Shown here: one piece after another, positions 54,001-64,000 of the stretch
How the letters are laid out: the number at the start of each line of letters is the position of its first letter
How positions within the stretch are numbered: the first letter of the stretch is position 1
NCBI GenBank assembly: GCA_963799845.1
Contig: CAWCYI010000005.1
Span: 1-64,000 of the forward strand
Source: an uncultured Nitrososphaerota archaeon
GTDB lineage: Archaea > Thermoproteota > Nitrososphaeria > Nitrososphaerales > CADDZS01
DNA: 64,000 nt
Direction: 5' to 3'
Position numbers: made by a program

Positions 54001-57000
54001 GCACACTTGACCACGATGCATTGTGATAGGAGGTATTTCTGGATAAGACGTATGTCTCTGGCATTTGAAGCACGGACGGTATCGGATTGTAATCGAAATT
54101 AACGATTGAATTGTTTCAGTCACGGAACACATCACCTCTGTAGTAGCGTCATTTGGTTGAAGATATGAAAGCGAGCTGCTCAAGTTATGCCAAAATATTG
54201 ACGCAAACCAATCACTTTTCGGCTCTAAAACAAAGAAATCGATATGGAATGGAGACATTTTTTGGATAGATTGACCGATAAGCATCCGGTTTTCCTTTTT
54301 CATCACTTTACTGGATTCCTAGATGCACTTTCTAGTCATTTCCGAACGAATATGCACAATGTTTTGCCAGCATCAGAGCAATAGTCGAATCGCTAACTTT
54401 CATCGTACTTTGGCGTTTTGCACTTTTGTGTCTTGTGCGTAATGGTATCTGTGATGCATTCATCCGGAAAACGGTCAAGCCAACTCTTTGCACCTAGGCA
54501 AGGATGTTGGCGGAGGTCTCCGCTATTTGGAGAAGACGCTTTTGTTGGAATGAAGTAAAAGCAGTCGAACTCGACCATTTTACGGTGAAGTATAGTGAGA
54601 AACGAAGATCCGACTAAAGGAAGTGGAAGTGAATAATGGAATCAGGCATAATCGGGTTAGGGCGCATTTGTGCAACCATTGCCCGTAGCCTCGATCACAA
54701 TGGACACGTGGTCGTCCATAACCGCGCCGAGGAGAAGGTCACGGGCGCACGACTGGAGCCGCCGACGGTATCGTCATCAGGCTCGAACTGATGAGTTCGA
54801 AGATTAGGTCCGGAAAAATTCGGGGCAGAAACCATGAGCAAGGAAAGCCACGTCAGCCACCCAATTCACCTTGTACACACAGAAGTTAAGGGGTTCGATT
54901 CCCTCGCGGAGCTTGCCCTGGACATGCGGTGGTCGTGGAACCATGCCACCGATGGAGTGTGGCGCACGCTTAATCCTATACTTTGGGAGTCACTCAAAAC
55001 CCTTGGGTTGTCCTGCAGAAGGTCTCGCGGGAACAGCTCGGAGCATGTGCTCGCCGATCCAGTTCCACAGACATTTGATAACCTTCTGCAAGCCAAGCGA
55101 CAGGCGTCCGAAAAGCCCGCATGGTTTCAGCAAAGACGTACCAAGCTCACTTAACCTGCGTGGCGTATTTCAGCATGGAATTCACGTTGAGCGAAGCGCT
55201 GCCCATCTACTGGGGGCTCGGCAACGTCGCAGGTGAATCAGCTCAAGGCCGCCAGCGACTTGGGCGTGCCGGTCGTTCGAGTGGGTCTGCTCTACCAACA
55301 GGGCTATTTTCGCCAAGTGATTGACATGGACGGAGCGCAGCAAGCTCTTTACCCGTACAACGACCCTGGACAGTTGCCGTACGTGCCGGTGCGCCGCCCT
55401 AACGGAGAATGGTTGCGGTTGGAGATTCCTTACCTGGTTACTCGGTCTGGCTGCGCGCCTGGGAGGTCCAGGGCGGGTCGAGTCAAACTCTACCTGCTCG
55501 ATAGCGATGATCCTGCAAACATCCCTGCTAATCGAGCGGATCACAAGTGGGCCTATATGGGGGCGGACCGGAGTTGCGCCTCAAGCAGGAACTGCTTCTC
55601 GGAATTGGCGGCTGGCGGTTGCTACGCGCCTTGGGCATCAAGCGAGAAGGTCTGTCACCTGAATGAAGGACACGCAGCCTTCGCTACGCTGGAGCGCGCC
55701 CGAGATTTCATGGAAGAAACCGGACAGCCGTTCAAGGTCGCGCTTGCCGTCACGCGAGCGGGAAACGTCTTCACCACGCACACGGCGGTAGCCGCTGGCT
55801 TTGATCGTTTCAATCCAGATCTCGTCAAACAATTTCTTGGATGGTATGCAGAGAATACACCTCCGCGTGCACTCCGCGATTTGTTCGCCCTAGGCCGCCA
55901 GAATCCGAACGACTCGTCGGAGAGTTTCAACATGGCCTATCTGGCAATCCGAGGAAGTGGTTCTGTGAATGGCGTGAGCCGCTTACATGGAAAAGTCAGC
56001 AGACAACTCTTTGAACCTCTTTTCGCCCGCTGACAGGGGACGAAGTGCCGGTCGGGCACGTGACCAACGGAGTTCATATGCCGAGCTGGGACTCAGTCAG
56101 GCTAACGATACTCTGGACGGAAGCCTGTGGAAAGAACCGTTGGCTGGAGCCAGCGGAAGATCTGGAAAATGGCATTCGCCGTCTCTCCAACTCTAGGCTC
56201 TGGCAATGTCGCAACGATGCCAGCAAGTCCCTTGTAGAATACGCTCGGGATGGTTTCTGCGGGACGCTGGCCGCCTCCGGCGCGTCGCCCGATGCAGTGG
56301 AGGAGGCGAAACATCTATTAATACGAATGCTTTGACACTGGGCTTTGCGCGGCGCTTCGCGACCTACAAGAGACCGAACCTGCTTCTGCACAACCCAGAG
56401 CGACTGCTTCGCTTATTGAAAAATTCCGAGCGTCCGGTGCAACTCATCATCGCTGGGAAGGCGCATCCGGCGGACCAAGCGGGGCAGGATCTAATCCAGG
56501 AATGGGTGCATTTCATCCGGCGACCCAGACACGCTCACATGTGATATTCCTCAGTGACTATGACATGCGTTTGAGCGAGCAATTGGTGCAGGGCGTGGAT
56601 GTTTGGATCAACACGCCGCGCCGGTCCTGGGAGGCGTGCGGAACGAGCGGCATGAAAGTGCTAGTCAACGGAGGCATCAATCTGTCGGAATTGGACGGCT
56701 GGTGGGCGGAAGCATACACGTCTGAAGTGGGGTGGGCAATCGGGGACAGGGTTCGACGCGTGACGATCCGGTCTGGGACGCGGCCGGAAGCCGTAGCGCT
56801 TTACGAGCGACTTGAGCGGGAGGTCGTCCCGGAGTTTTATACTCGCGACAAAGACGGCGTTCCCGCTGCATGGGTTGCGCGGATGCGAGAAAGCATGGCG
56901 CTATTGACACCGCGCTTCTCCGCCCACCGCGCAGTGCGCGAATACACCGAGCAACACTACCTGCCGGCTGCTACCGCCTATCATTTGCGCAGCGACAATA

Positions 57001-63000: not shown

Positions 63001-64000
63001 CGTGATTTCCACCGCGGCCAGCCGTGTTGCGGTCCGCGTCATTCATACAGACGAGGAATGGATGATAGCCAAGACGGTTTGCTCAGTTCTTGGCCTTATG
63101 AGTAAGGAGAAATCGACCCAGTGGAACCAAACACACTCACTCCGGAACTGCTCCACAAGATGGATGCCTACTGGCGCGCCGCCAACTATCTGTCGGTTGG
63201 CCAGATTTATCTCTACGACAATCCGCTGTTGAAGGAGCCGCTGGAACTGTCGCATGTGAAGCCCCTTGTGGTCGGACACTGGGGCACGGTTCCAGCAAGA
63301 TTCGTCTACGTGCACCTGAATCGAGTCATCAAAAAATATGACCTGGATATGTTTTACATCTCCGGTCCCGGTCACGGAGGTGCTGCTCTAGTGGGCAATA
63401 CTTACCTCGAAGGCACCTATAGCGAGATTTATCCTAACATCAGCCAGGACGAAGCCGGAATGAAGGCGTTGTTTAGGCAATTCTCGTTTCCCGGAGGGAT
63501 TTCCAGTCATGTTGCACCGACGACGCCGGGGTCGATACACGAAGGTGGCGGACTGGGATATTCGCTGAGCCATGCCTTCGGGGCAGCGTTTGACAATCCC
63601 GAACTGATAGTCGCCTGTGTTATCGGAGATGGTGAGGCGGAAACGGGCAAGCTGGCGACTTCATGGCAGTCCAACAAGCTTCTTGACCCGGTTACCGACG
63701 GAGCCGTCCTGCCAATCCTTCATCTCAATGGCTACAAGATCAGCAATCCAACTGTTCTGGCGCGTGTAAAGGAAGAGGAATTGGAGCAATTTCTACGAGG
63801 CTGCGGCTGGACGCCCCACTTTGTGGTGGGTGATGAGCCGGAAAAGATGCATGAACTCATGGCGAACACTATGGAAGTGGTAATCGAAGATATCAAGCGA
63901 ATCCAAAGTAATGCACGGAATAAGAACGACACTAGTCGGCCGCACTGGCCAATGATCGTTCTCAAGTCACCCAAGGGATGGACGGGACCGAAATTCGTTG

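Follow-up and report, generated by a model that had tools for sequence, protein, structure and literature searches.

A bacterial-type glycogen–phosphoketolase–acetate kinase gene cluster in an uncultured Nitrososphaerota archaeon, probably acquired from soil bacteria

A contig of an uncultured Nitrososphaerota archaeon (Nitrososphaerales; CADDZS01) carries a run of bacterial-type genes for glycogen breakdown and acetate formation, nearly all of which are read in fragments. This raises the question of whether the genes truly belong to the archaeon and, if they do, where they came from and whether they are intact. The genome, here called G000, is a metagenome-assembled genome (MAG; GCA_963799845.1) with a completeness of 86.7% and a contamination of 4.9%. 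The window is the first 64,000 nucleotides of contig CAWCYI010000005.1 (C5), on which coordinates are given unless another contig is named. Archaeal markers are present elsewhere in the genome, with SSU rRNA on C1 and L21e on C6. A halophile or a methanogen was considered and rejected: D plus E residues are about as frequent as K plus R, and no McrA was found in the genome.

Between 54,784 and 64,000, C5 encodes an alpha-glucan phosphorylase, GlgX, MalQ, a HAD hydrolase, acetate kinase and the start of a phosphoketolase, all on the plus strand. The alpha-glucan (maltodextrin/glycogen) phosphorylase GlgP (54,795–57,170), which has an N-terminal DUF3417 domain, is read in about six pieces by Pfam; in tblastn a Terriglobia orthologue covers 54,825–57,168 in shifting frames. 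It is followed by a GlgX-type glycogen debranching enzyme (57,238–59,847; four pieces; Pfam and tblastn), the GH77 4-alpha-glucanotransferase MalQ (59,688–61,193; three pieces; Pfam) and a HAD-family hydrolase (61,290–61,919; two to four pieces; tblastn), whose orthologue in the bacterial locus L066 matches Pfam Hydrolase/HAD_2. Acetate kinase, AckA (61,920–63,112; three pieces; Pfam Acetate_kinase and tblastn), lies directly before the N-terminal part of the phosphoketolase Xfp (63,121–64,000), and this last gene continues to the end of C5 and into contig C9 (to 43,303). The Pfam matches on the plus strand pieces from 54,795 to 63,999 are DUF3417 and Phosphorylase, CBM_48/ISOA1-3_C, Glyco_hydro_77 (three pieces), Acetate_kinase (three pieces) and XFP_N (482 bits). 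An earlier note on this DNA, whose main observation is confirmed, missed the HAD hydrolase; its starting point for the block, 54,636, has to be moved, as bacterial-type DNA begins at ∼54,784–54,825.

The two contigs meet within one gene. The alignment of C5 63,107–65,444 with the reverse strand of C9 (45,691–43,342) spans 2,366 columns at 96.07% identity and contains 49 mismatches and 38 gap openings. This overlap is the xfp gene itself, and the contigs end at its two ends. Two metagenome contigs, L118 and L119, carry aldolase, xfp and ackA in unbroken succession, together with MalQ and GlgX, and are colinear with the ends of both C5 and C9, which confirms the earlier proposal that the contigs form a single stretch. 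Beyond the overlap, the block runs on through a class I aldolase (FBA) and then a triose-phosphate isomerase (TIM) and a HAD-type phosphoglucomutase that is split by an insertion sequence (IS). The block had been described as ∼20 kb of bacterial genes. Bacterial genes are present, but they form a mosaic of two pieces, 11.8 kb and 1.9 kb long, with archaeal-type genes between them that separate TIM and the mutase from FBA. This part of the locus includes an NTP-transferase gene with homologues of 43%–55% amino acid identity across the order; none was found near xfp among 80 bacterial loci.

The enzyme assignments were examined individually. Xfp has XFP_N on C5 and XFP and XFP_C on C9, and the 790-amino-acid frame of L119 matches solved phosphoketolases end to end, with 8io8 the best relative at 1131 bits and 3ahc at ∼850 bits. 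The three acetate kinase pieces (PF00871, ASKHA) span profile positions 80–392. Other Pfam matches on C9 are TIM, DDE_Tnp_1, Glycolytic (PF00274) and a weak PMM match. The Glycolytic match scores 410 bits over profile positions 2–321 in an intact 370-amino-acid ORF, and the best solved relative of this aldolase is 3mmt (E 8e-104). The mutase had been called a phosphomannomutase. Its 3′ piece reaches 20.9 bits with the eukaryotic-type phosphomannomutase profile (PF03332), below the Pfam cut-off of 22.4, and the intact mutase of L119 matches the alpha-phosphoglucomutase 4bnd at E 6e-42, compared with 4e-14 or weaker for true phosphomannomutases. Judged by these matches, it looks like a HAD-type alpha-phosphoglucomutase.

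The closest relatives of the block are bacterial, as the earlier note had found. Among the best 80 Xfp loci kept from named genomes (560 confirmed stretches overall), all 80 are from bacteria, at 80%–89% amino acid identity, and in a tree the Xfp of G000 nests among bacterial rows. At the nucleotide level, a Terriglobia MAG locus (L066) is colinear with C5 54,824–61,290 at 78.3% and with C5 61,291–65,438 at 82.0%, and a Planctomycetota MAG locus (L079) with C9 45,678–42,287 at 84.1%; colinearity at 78%–84% extends to clusters in bacterial MAGs of many phyla. The gene order GlgP-GlgX-MalQ-HAD-AckA-Xfp-FBA is common to the archaeon and bacterial loci such as L066, and GlgP and the HAD hydrolase occur in 19–23 and 15, respectively, of the 80 bacterial xfp loci. 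For MalQ, AckA, Xfp, FBA, TIM and the mutase, no paralogue was found elsewhere in the archaeon's genome. Xfp was found in none of 12 genomes of the family and gives three strong matches among 400 other sampled genomes of the order, whereas PF00274 was found in none of 400 other sampled genomes of the phylum. Within the family, DNA matches of the block are limited to GlgX-like bits. As in a genomic island, the block is missing from close relatives that have the flanks (78%–95% identity), is nested among and syntenic with sequences of the donor group, and deviates in composition. It is likely, taken jointly with the archaeal residence, intactness and pathway reading set out below, that the block was acquired horizontally from bacteria.

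Transfer might instead have run the other way, from an old archaeal cluster into bacteria. At least three further genomes from the order (G230, G106 and G115) do have Xfp–AckA clusters. Moreover, a quick tree separates the Xfp proteins of G000 and G230, but a constrained clade of the two scored higher (p-AU 0.967) and is not rejected. However, the 0 of 12 and 3 of 400 occurrences stand against hundreds of loci in bacteria (560 confirmed stretches), and the MalQ of G000 is 36%–40% identical to that of G230 versus 65%–71% to bacterial proteins (GlgX, 45%–65% versus up to 77%). The block is also the G+C outlier of its genome. We consider an archaeal origin of the cluster very improbable.

The G+C content of C5 54,795–65,444 is 54.9%, compared with a genome mean of 47.4% (sd 2.3), and the 5-kb interval at 55,001 (56.5%) ranks first among 918 in the genome. 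Heterotrophic terrestrial Thaumarchaeota MAGs are given as 46%–48% G+C and up to 3.8 Mb in the main text of one study (PMC10640624). High G+C is by itself no marker of the foreign part. A step in composition occurs at 48,000, and the segment from 48 to 54 kb is also raised, at 51.8%. This step was ruled out as an edge of foreign DNA since a short-read contig bridges 47,457–49,378 and the segment is archaeal-type. The neighboring module (48,000–54,318), mostly on the minus strand, thus lies outside the bacterial block. It comprises a MIP channel (48,256–48,906, minus; 93% amino acid identity to MAG G108 of the same genus), a histidine phosphatase (49,062–49,538, plus), PPK2 (49,780–50,421, minus; 87% to G108), a DUF5752-like piece (50,519–50,920, minus), a P-type ATPase (50,796–53,417, minus; three pieces), a Tmk-like gene (53,483–53,881, minus) and a small ORF (53,941–54,318, minus). 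Pfam matches and a nucleotide identity of 78%–85% to contig C165 of G108 define the module, and this same-genus identity overturns the former view that the G+C-rich stretch was bacterial. Its ATPase has paralogues on C4 and C7 (82%–83% nucleotide identity) and homologues of 66%–83% amino acid identity in 15 of the 97 family f9 genomes, versus ∼54% to the ATPases of the bacterial clusters; its PPK2 is 43% identical to bacterial PPK2.

Evidence that the block resides in the archaeon comes from the insertion in the mutase gene. The IS at C9 36,685–37,889 has copies of 96.8%–99.7% identity at C6:542383, C6:1580897, C6:1690673, C4:751276 and C4:1551572, and four more at 84%. Like IS4/IS5-type elements, it has a DDE_Tnp_1 transposase (PF01609), terminal inverted repeats (CAGTAGATGCGAAT... 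and ...ATTCGCATCTACTG), several copies and a target duplication, which is 4 bp long (GAAC, TCTG and TTTA at the three copies with readable flanks). The copy within the mutase gene is flanked by the GAAC duplication, the frame is open across the insertion site, and in L119 the same site is empty with a single GAAC. A second repeat (C9 7,826–9,002) is 99.4%–99.6% identical to sequences on C8 and C4. L118 and L119, which derive from a relative 5%–15% diverged, show the same bacterial/archaeal mosaic at 84%–96% nucleotide identity, free of the IS and with all genes intact. Between G000 and L119, the block is 84%–93% identical versus 93%–96% for the part with TIM and the NTP-transferase, a difference that counts against this picture. 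On the C5 flank, 44.3–45.6 kb is 95% identical in G023 and 47.6–53.7 kb is 78%–85% identical in G108, both of the same genus. The depth of near-identical short-read contigs in the block (2.4–10.5) tracks that of the flanks (2.7–7.2) in four runs of one study, which may include the source sample.

These data bear on whether a bacterial fragment was misjoined, or C5 and C9 binned from another organism. Such an artefact would be in keeping with the incompleteness (86.7%) and contamination (4.9%) of the MAG, with two small contigs that lack marker genes and each stop at an end of xfp, and with the noisy consensus of the block in samples holding many bacterial homologues. It would not produce a clean insertion of an IS whose family is 96.8%–99.7% identical on C4 and C6, the same mosaic in a relative 5%–15% diverged, archaeal-type genes inside the block or flanks 78%–95% identical to same-genus MAGs. 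Nor is there nucleotide similarity at the edges from which a false join could have arisen; even at the amino acid level, the ATPase and PPK2 of the bacteria are only 54% and 43% identical. The artefact is already largely refuted, and we give it hardly any weight; the conclusion that the block is no contaminant holds.

The left edge is marked by duplicated archaeal sequence. At 54,314–54,471 (plus strand) lies a diverged copy (∼80%; blastn and alignment) of the sequence that precedes the glucokinase gene in the pentose-phosphate operon (C9 27,495–27,339), and it points towards GlgP. At 54,492–54,738 (plus strand) follows a diverged copy (74%–78%) of C9 21,442–21,197, which holds the 3′ end of tal-pgi and the start (∼33 codons) of the 6-phosphogluconate dehydrogenase gene; it forms a remnant ORF ending in stops immediately before GlgP. 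These two segments occupy the edge in place of an integration signature, as scans found no tRNA and no integrase at the block edges. Among the matches listed (32 of 1,191 short-read pieces), no single contig bridges 54,357–54,973. Contig C165 of G108 was considered as an empty site and rejected. It has relatives of both flanks (C9 35.9–36.5 kb and C5 47.6–53.7 kb) and lacks the block, yet these are arranged and oriented differently, and the small gene beside the mutase is one of a multi-copy family.

The earlier note placed the block in the archaeal chromosome. It does lie in the archaeal genome; “chromosome” was an overstatement, because C5 and C9 form one unplaced scaffold of ∼109 kb. A plasmid or other mobile accessory element is suggested by the lack of overlap with other contig ends, by content that is patchy among relatives, and by the lack of core markers on a scaffold that carries a defence island, accessory metabolism and IS elements of two types. 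However, genes for replication, partition or conjugation were not noticed in Pfam and NCBIfam scans, no tRNA or integrase sits at the edges, and the flanks have their relatives on ordinary MAG contigs. A location on such an element is unlikely, and it is compatible with acquisition and residence as described above.

Between 50.8 and 65.4 kb, almost all genes appear as two to six pieces. True frameshifts in a decaying relic would yield such a pattern, and the mutase is indeed cut by the IS. Several observations oppose decay. The C5 and C9 copies of xfp do not break frame at the same positions, and their differences are patchy between long identical runs. At two of the frame breaks, short-read contigs have an additional C (58,587) or lack one base (59,357). 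The alignment of C5 with L119 has 73 gap events in 7.5 kb, 71 of which are not multiples of three, and this number of frameshifts at 84%–93% identity to an intact relative is unlike decay. In L119 the frames are open for Xfp (790 amino acids), AckA (442), MalQ (578), FBA (370), TIM (313), the HAD hydrolase (233) and the mutase without the IS (286), and GlgX is unbroken over the part present (at least 594). The archaeal-type ATPase, with its 82%–83% identical paralogues, is broken as well, which fits misrecruited reads. Thus, a dead block is improbable, and the broken frames are most likely errors of a noisy long-read consensus, the cause that the earlier note had favored. The errors probably arose because reads from paralogues and from abundant bacterial homologues were recruited to this stretch. 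As a further indicator, the fraction of bases that fall in ORFs of 250 amino acids or more was calculated per 10 kb; at 0.45–0.49 in the block, against a genome-wide median of 0.62 and 5th percentile of 0.27, it does not single the block out.

The best overall explanation, which we regard as rather probable, is that a bacterial cluster was transferred, became resident and was kept, and that its frames were broken by consensus errors. A cluster circulating in soil bacteria (GlgP, GlgX, MalQ, HAD, AckA, Xfp and class I aldolase) would have entered a non-ammonia-oxidizing soil archaeon and been retained, with TIM and the HAD-type alpha-phosphoglucomutase as a second acquired piece. The data show the gene content, its bacterial ancestry, its place in the archaeal genome and open frames in a close relative; the pathway, its direction and any role under low oxygen are inferred. 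From the gene content, stored or imported alpha-glucan would be converted to glucose-1-phosphate by phosphorolysis, and then to glucose-6-phosphate and fructose-6-phosphate. Phosphoketolase would split fructose-6-phosphate or xylulose-5-phosphate to give acetyl phosphate, from which acetate kinase would form acetate and ATP, while aldolase, TIM, transaldolase and transketolase would recycle the remaining carbon. The outcome would be substrate-level ATP without respiration, possibly of use when oxygen is scarce. Genes for RPE and PFK are present in the genome, and C9 carries tal-pgi, tkt, gnd and glk. PTA was not found in this genome, a weak absence at 86.7% completeness; together with the position of AckA directly upstream of Xfp, this points to the direction from acetyl phosphate to acetate. 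The mutase of G000 is cut by the IS, and one pathway step may be lost.

Several known systems resemble this locus. The phosphoketolases of the bifid shunt in Bifidobacterium and heterofermentative lactic acid bacteria and of cyanobacteria (3ahc, 3ai7, 8io8) likewise have full-length XFP_N, XFP and XFP_C and, as in the phosphoketolase pathway, Xfp is paired here with acetate kinase and transaldolase/transketolase. Those pathways provide ATP during fermentation or in the dark without oxygen. The locus differs in its archaeal host and in the link to glycogen breakdown and a class I aldolase. Acetate kinase in archaea is known mainly from Methanosarcina, which acquired it from bacteria. The Methanosarcina enzyme is thus also bacterial-type and a product of inter-domain transfer, but it is paired with Pta for acetate activation, whereas here no PTA was found and AckA lies upstream of Xfp. 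Archaea are generally held to lack phosphoketolase, and full-text literature searches turned up no paper on an archaeal one. Among soil non-ammonia-oxidizing relatives, the Gagatemarchaeaceae have enlarged genomes and acquired carbohydrate genes; the words phosphoketolase, acetate kinase and glycogen do not occur in the main text describing them (PMC10640624).

The locus is a further case of a known phenomenon, the inter-domain transfer of a metabolic operon. It is a well-documented whole-operon transfer, with ∼80% nucleotide identity to bacterial copies and an IS-free, frame-intact version in a related population. An intact Xfp–AckA–aldolase–glycogen cluster would give the poorly known heterotrophic soil relatives of ammonia oxidizers respiration-independent ATP from stored glucan, a way of making ATP not known to have been described in archaea, and would bear on survival in waterlogged or oxygen-poor soil. 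There is also a lesson in method: transferred genes with highly conserved counterparts in abundant neighbors end up with a degraded long-read consensus and broken contigs, and are then easily mistaken for pseudogenes or contamination.

More speculatively, a glycogen-to-acetate survival module (phosphorylase, debrancher, MalQ, mutases, phosphoketolase, acetate kinase and class I aldolase, in many cases joined by a P-type ATPase and PPK2) may move as a unit among at least 14 differently labelled soil bacterial phyla, may have entered non-ammonia-oxidizing Nitrososphaerales-like archaea more than once, and may here be under native control behind the duplicated regulatory segments of the pentose-phosphate operon. 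This combination of claims is doubtful. If true, archaea would have their first fermentative ATP route based on a phosphoketolase, and the locus would be an operon domesticated across the bacterial/archaeal promoter difference. The Burkholderia “low-oxygen-activated (lxa)” locus was considered as a possible identity of the bacterial cluster and dropped, as no supporting literature was found. Among the papers listed by the literature searches, none describes the cluster.

The bacterial glycogen–phosphoketolase–acetate kinase clusters (L066, L079) share genes, order and direction with the archaeal block, at 78%–84% nucleotide identity over 10.6 kb and 3.4 kb. Among 80 bacterial loci, neighbors include TIM in 10, the HAD-type mutase in 24, a P-type ATPase in 46–51 and PPK2 in 31. 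In contrast, the locus described here has an archaeal host, its TIM-mutase piece is inverted and apart from FBA, and the ATPase and PPK2 are of the archaeon's own type. The genomic company of the block consists of the archaeon's own sugar and phosphate genes: the pentose-phosphate operon, a GH15 glucoamylase, the P-type ATPase and PPK2.

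The sugar-metabolism cluster at the right end of C5, which continues on contig C9, is a real, bacterial-derived set of genes resident in an archaeal genome. All of the genes listed in the earlier note are present. Between 54,795 and the right edge of the window, forward-strand Pfam matches cover DUF3417 and phosphorylase, the GlgX domains, GH77, acetate kinase and XFP_N; those on C9 are to XFP, XFP_C, class I aldolase, TIM, a DDE transposase and, weakly, PMM. A HAD hydrolase (61,290–61,919) was missing from that list. The C5/C9 overlap (96.07% over 2,366 columns) and the high G+C content were reproduced, the block being the top 5-kb window of 918 (56.5% versus a mean of 47.4%).

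The picture of a single bacterial block stands only in part. Bacterial-type genes are present, but they form pieces separated by archaeal-type genes, and the layout is therefore a mosaic of ∼17.5 kb. The first piece (11.8 kb) aligns with bacterial loci at the nucleotide level from 54,784–54,824 to C9 ∼42,220–42,290, just past the aldolase gene. It is followed on C9 by ∼2.6 kb at 47% G+C holding an NTP-transferase, with full-length homologues (43%–55% amino acid identity) spread over the archaeal order, and an unknown gene with relatives of 65%–82% nucleotide identity in the family and on C2. The NTP-transferase is found beside xfp in none of 80 bacterial loci. The second bacterial-type piece, the inverted TIM and mutase genes, measures ∼1.9 kb plus a 1.18-kb insertion sequence (IS); the mutase begins at C9 ∼36,510. 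A small basic ORF, belonging to an archaeal multi-copy family, lies only 35 bp away from it.

To the left, the G+C content of C5 shifts in a step at 48,000. Despite this step, archaeal relatives rule out the 48–54 kb stretch as bacterial-type DNA. Its genes encode a MIP channel, a histidine phosphatase, PPK2, a P-type ATPase and a Tmk-like protein, and it matches one contig of a same-genus genome (G108) at 78%–85% nucleotide identity (MIP 93% and PPK2 87% at the protein level). The ATPase has paralogues on C4 and C7 (82%–83% nucleotide identity); among 97 genomes sampled from another family of the order, 15 carry genes 66%–83% identical to it in amino acids, versus ∼54% for the ATPases of bacterial clusters.

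When the N-terminal part of Xfp was used as the query, 560 of 599 pattern-matched stretches in named species genomes encoded relatives, and the best 80 of the 560 were all bacterial. Gene order is common to many of these 80 loci, with AckA present in 45–52, FBA in 40, ATPase in 46–51, PPK2 in 31, mutase in 24, GlgP in 19–23, HAD in 15, GlgX in 13–14, TIM in 10 and MalQ in 2. A locus from a Terriglobia MAG is arranged as PGM-GlgP-GlgX-MalQ-HAD-AckA-Xfp-FBA-...-ATPase-PPK2 and matches the window at 78.3% and 82.0% nucleotide identity over 10.6 kb. In the Xfp tree, the archaeal sequence falls inside the bacterial rows. In the genome, MalQ, AckA, Xfp, FBA, TIM and the mutase are each present in a single copy. 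None of 12 family genomes and none of 6 same-genus genomes (58%–87% complete) yielded Xfp, and none of 400 further genomes sampled across the phylum yielded class I aldolase. The sole positive control for the aldolase search was this genome's own match, because the family is absent from all 14 controls.

The xfp cluster is strikingly alike across bacterial phyla, with Xfp 80%–89% identical in amino acids to the query in the best 80 loci. At least 14 phylum-level groups appear in their titles, among them Acidobacteriota, Verrucomicrobiota, Planctomycetota, Proteobacteria and Cyanobacteria; on the tree these labels are intermixed and scattered (27 changes versus a minimum of 13). This pattern suggests that soil bacteria have recently and widely exchanged the cluster.

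A sample of 400 other genomes of the order contains three with Xfp. One of these, G230, carries MalQ-GlgP-GlgX-AckA-Xfp on a 2.06-Mb contig in surroundings of ∼60% G+C, at 36%–82% amino acid identity to the genes studied here; in the other two (G106 and G115), AckA and Xfp form a convergent pair at 64%–70%. The genes studied here are nearer to bacterial genes than to those of G230, yet a clade uniting the two archaeal Xfp sequences is not rejected in a tree test. Archaea may therefore have gained Xfp once or several times.

The view that the cluster is not a contaminant was borne out by the IS within the mutase gene (C9 36,697–37,876), which is flanked by a GAAC duplication and across whose site the frame is continuous. 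C4 and C6 together carry five copies that are 96.8%–99.7% identical, and no family genome has the element above 68% identity. A second repeat (C9 7,826–9,002) is 99.4%–99.6% identical to C8 37800–38975 and C4 598991–600167. The flank at 44.3–45.6 kb gives a 95% match to the same-genus MAG G023.

Two metagenome contigs, L118 (18.8 kb) and L119 (18.5 kb), were obtained with the NTP-transferase as query. Both have the order small ORF-mutase-TIM-NTP-transferase-unknown-FBA-Xfp-AckA-HAD-MalQ-GlgX, arranged as in our archaeon, and are colinear with C9 36,343–45,691, with no IS and a single GAAC, and with C5 65,405–57,865. This colinearity confirms the mosaic, the IS insertion and the joining of C5 and C9 into one stretch. 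The source organism differs from ours by 4%–16% in nucleotides. In short-read contigs, the stretch is present in four runs of one soil study, and one contig spans the 48-kb G+C step (47,457–49,378). Near-identical short-read contigs have depths of 2.4–10.5 in the block versus 2.7–7.2 in the flanks, alike in each run; these depths weakly back residence in the archaeon, since the source sample may be among the runs. None of the independent contigs listed crosses 54.36–54.97 kb, and C5–C9 has no overlap with the ends of other contigs. We read the ∼109-kb C5–C9 scaffold as part of the archaeal genome, putatively on the chromosome or on a separate replicon.

Identity between L119 and our archaeon is uneven, at 93%–96% for mutase-TIM-NTP-transferase and 84%–93% from FBA to GlgX, and 0.7 kb (C9 41.3–42.0 kb) cannot be aligned. 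The L119 Xfp is 91% identical in amino acids to an Acidobacteriota locus versus 86% to our sequence. Of the six IS copies that were aligned, three (C6:542383, C4:751276 and C4:1551572) have, on each side, an extra 12–26 bp of similar, roughly palindromic flank, CCCACGGCTGAA ... GAAGCACGTGGGA; the IS appears to prefer, or travel inside, a short repeat. The second repeat is a mobile element with a 374-aa ORF bearing HTH_32/HTH_29 domains, and further copies (83%–88%) occur on C6, C7 and C8.

Many genes of the cluster are split, which had been ascribed to probable consensus error. This explanation is upheld by several observations. In L119 every gene reads through as a single open frame (Xfp 790 aa, AckA 442, MalQ 578, FBA 370, TIM 313, HAD 233). 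Against it, C5 57,865–65,405 shows 73 gap events, of which 71 have lengths not divisible by three, and C9 37,877–41,171 shows six. The xfp copies on C5 and C9 lose frame at different places, and their differences fall in mixed mismatch/indel patches between identical runs of several hundred bases. At two GlgX frame breaks, short-read contigs add C (58,587) and drop one base (59,357). Gaps relative to short-read contigs number ∼1.4/kb at 45.6–52.3 kb, ∼7/kb at 52.3–54.4 kb and ∼13/kb inside the block. We judge from these comparisons that the apparent frame breaks are consensus noise. Summed short-read depth in block bins, from contigs 90%–95% alike, reaches 3–10× flank depth. A likely cause is that the consensus recruited reads of abundant bacterial homologues and ATPase paralogues. 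Such recruitment would also account for both C5 and C9 stopping no more than ∼40 bp from the ends of xfp, which is the gene conserved most strongly.

Judged by gene content, the cluster is a predicted, apparently functional sugar-to-acetate route. GlgP, GlgX and MalQ would convert glycogen or maltodextrin to glucose-1-phosphate, a supply to which two enzymes encoded on C9, a GH15 glucoamylase and a glucokinase, may add. The mutase, previously called a phosphomannomutase, is instead a HAD-type enzyme closest to α-phosphoglucomutase 4bnd (E 6e-42, versus 4e-14 or weaker for true phosphomannomutases) and would yield glucose-6-phosphate. Since the IS cuts this gene, the step may depend on another mutase. 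A tal-pgi fusion, transketolase and 6-phosphogluconate dehydrogenase (C9 20.4–26.3 kb), with ribulose-phosphate epimerase (C6), could supply fructose-6-phosphate and xylulose-5-phosphate; a 508-aa frame guessed to be zwf (C9 18,862–20,385) may also feed these steps. Xfp would then form acetyl phosphate, from which AckA would produce ATP and acetate. Phosphotransacetylase was not found in the genome (86.7% complete), so a catabolic direction of AckA is favored. The triose branch may be completed or recycled by class I aldolase and TIM together with a phosphofructokinase of bacterial type encoded on C4.

The phosphofructokinase gene (C4:756047–756931; PF00365, 352 bits) is on a main contig of 2.1 Mb, ∼3.6 kb from a near-identical IS copy (C4:751276–752479); PF00365 was matched in nine bacterial and no archaeal control genomes. 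Among the matches listed by full-text literature searches, none had archaeal phosphoketolase as its subject, as judged by title and the start of the abstract. Phosphoketolase, acetate kinase and glycogen are not mentioned in the main text of PMC10640624, whose supplements could list such genes.

Two partial copies of C9 sequence precede the cluster, both oriented towards GlgP: C5 54,314–54,471 copies the region upstream of glucokinase (80%), and 54,492–54,738 copies the tal-pgi 3′ end and the first ∼33 gnd codons (74%–78%). They are either captured native regulatory DNA before the foreign operon or remains of a second pentose-phosphate operon. The block is adjoined, at C9 13238–27297, by the glucoamylase gene and by a pentose-phosphate operon of bacterial style, which comprises glucokinase, a transketolase read in two frames, a transaldolase-PGI fusion and 6-phosphogluconate dehydrogenase. 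At the DNA level, this operon was matched at 65%–71% in only two of the 12 family genomes, G044 and the unpublished G102, and its homologues lie near xfp in 4–19 of the 80 bacterial loci at 45%–58% amino acid identity. These C9 sugar genes look like an older layer of acquisition.

The assembly (4.60 Mb, nine contigs, 86.7% complete, 4.9% contaminated; C5 is 65,444 bp) is archaeal, as seen from an archaeal SSU rRNA at the C1 end (776 bits) and ribosomal protein L21e on C6, whose family matched 4 of 14 control genomes, all four archaeal. The proteome is non-acidic. Neither McrA nor archaeal AmoA was found in this 86.7% complete genome, and within the order amoA is present in two copies in G306 and absent from G009, G230, G106 and G072. 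The archaeon is therefore read as a non-ammonia-oxidizing member of the order containing the ammonia-oxidizing archaea, putatively Nitrososphaerales.

The left 30 kb of C5 (2857–31510) reads as a defense island. Candidate genes below the NCBIfam equivalog cut-off encode a HerA-like helicase (2857–4680), a SNF2/DrmD-like helicase (8845–10482), an ADP-ribosylarginine-hydrolase-like protein (18581–19561) and a TIR-domain piece (30620–31510); the Dam-family methyltransferase (11600–12511) and the DGQHR match of a DpdB-like gene (27490–28983) are not below it. Short repeats at 26545–26907 and 29612–30511 are common to the main contigs, with 90.7%–94.5% identity to two places on C1, 87% to C6 and 92.4% over 903 bp to C4:191624.
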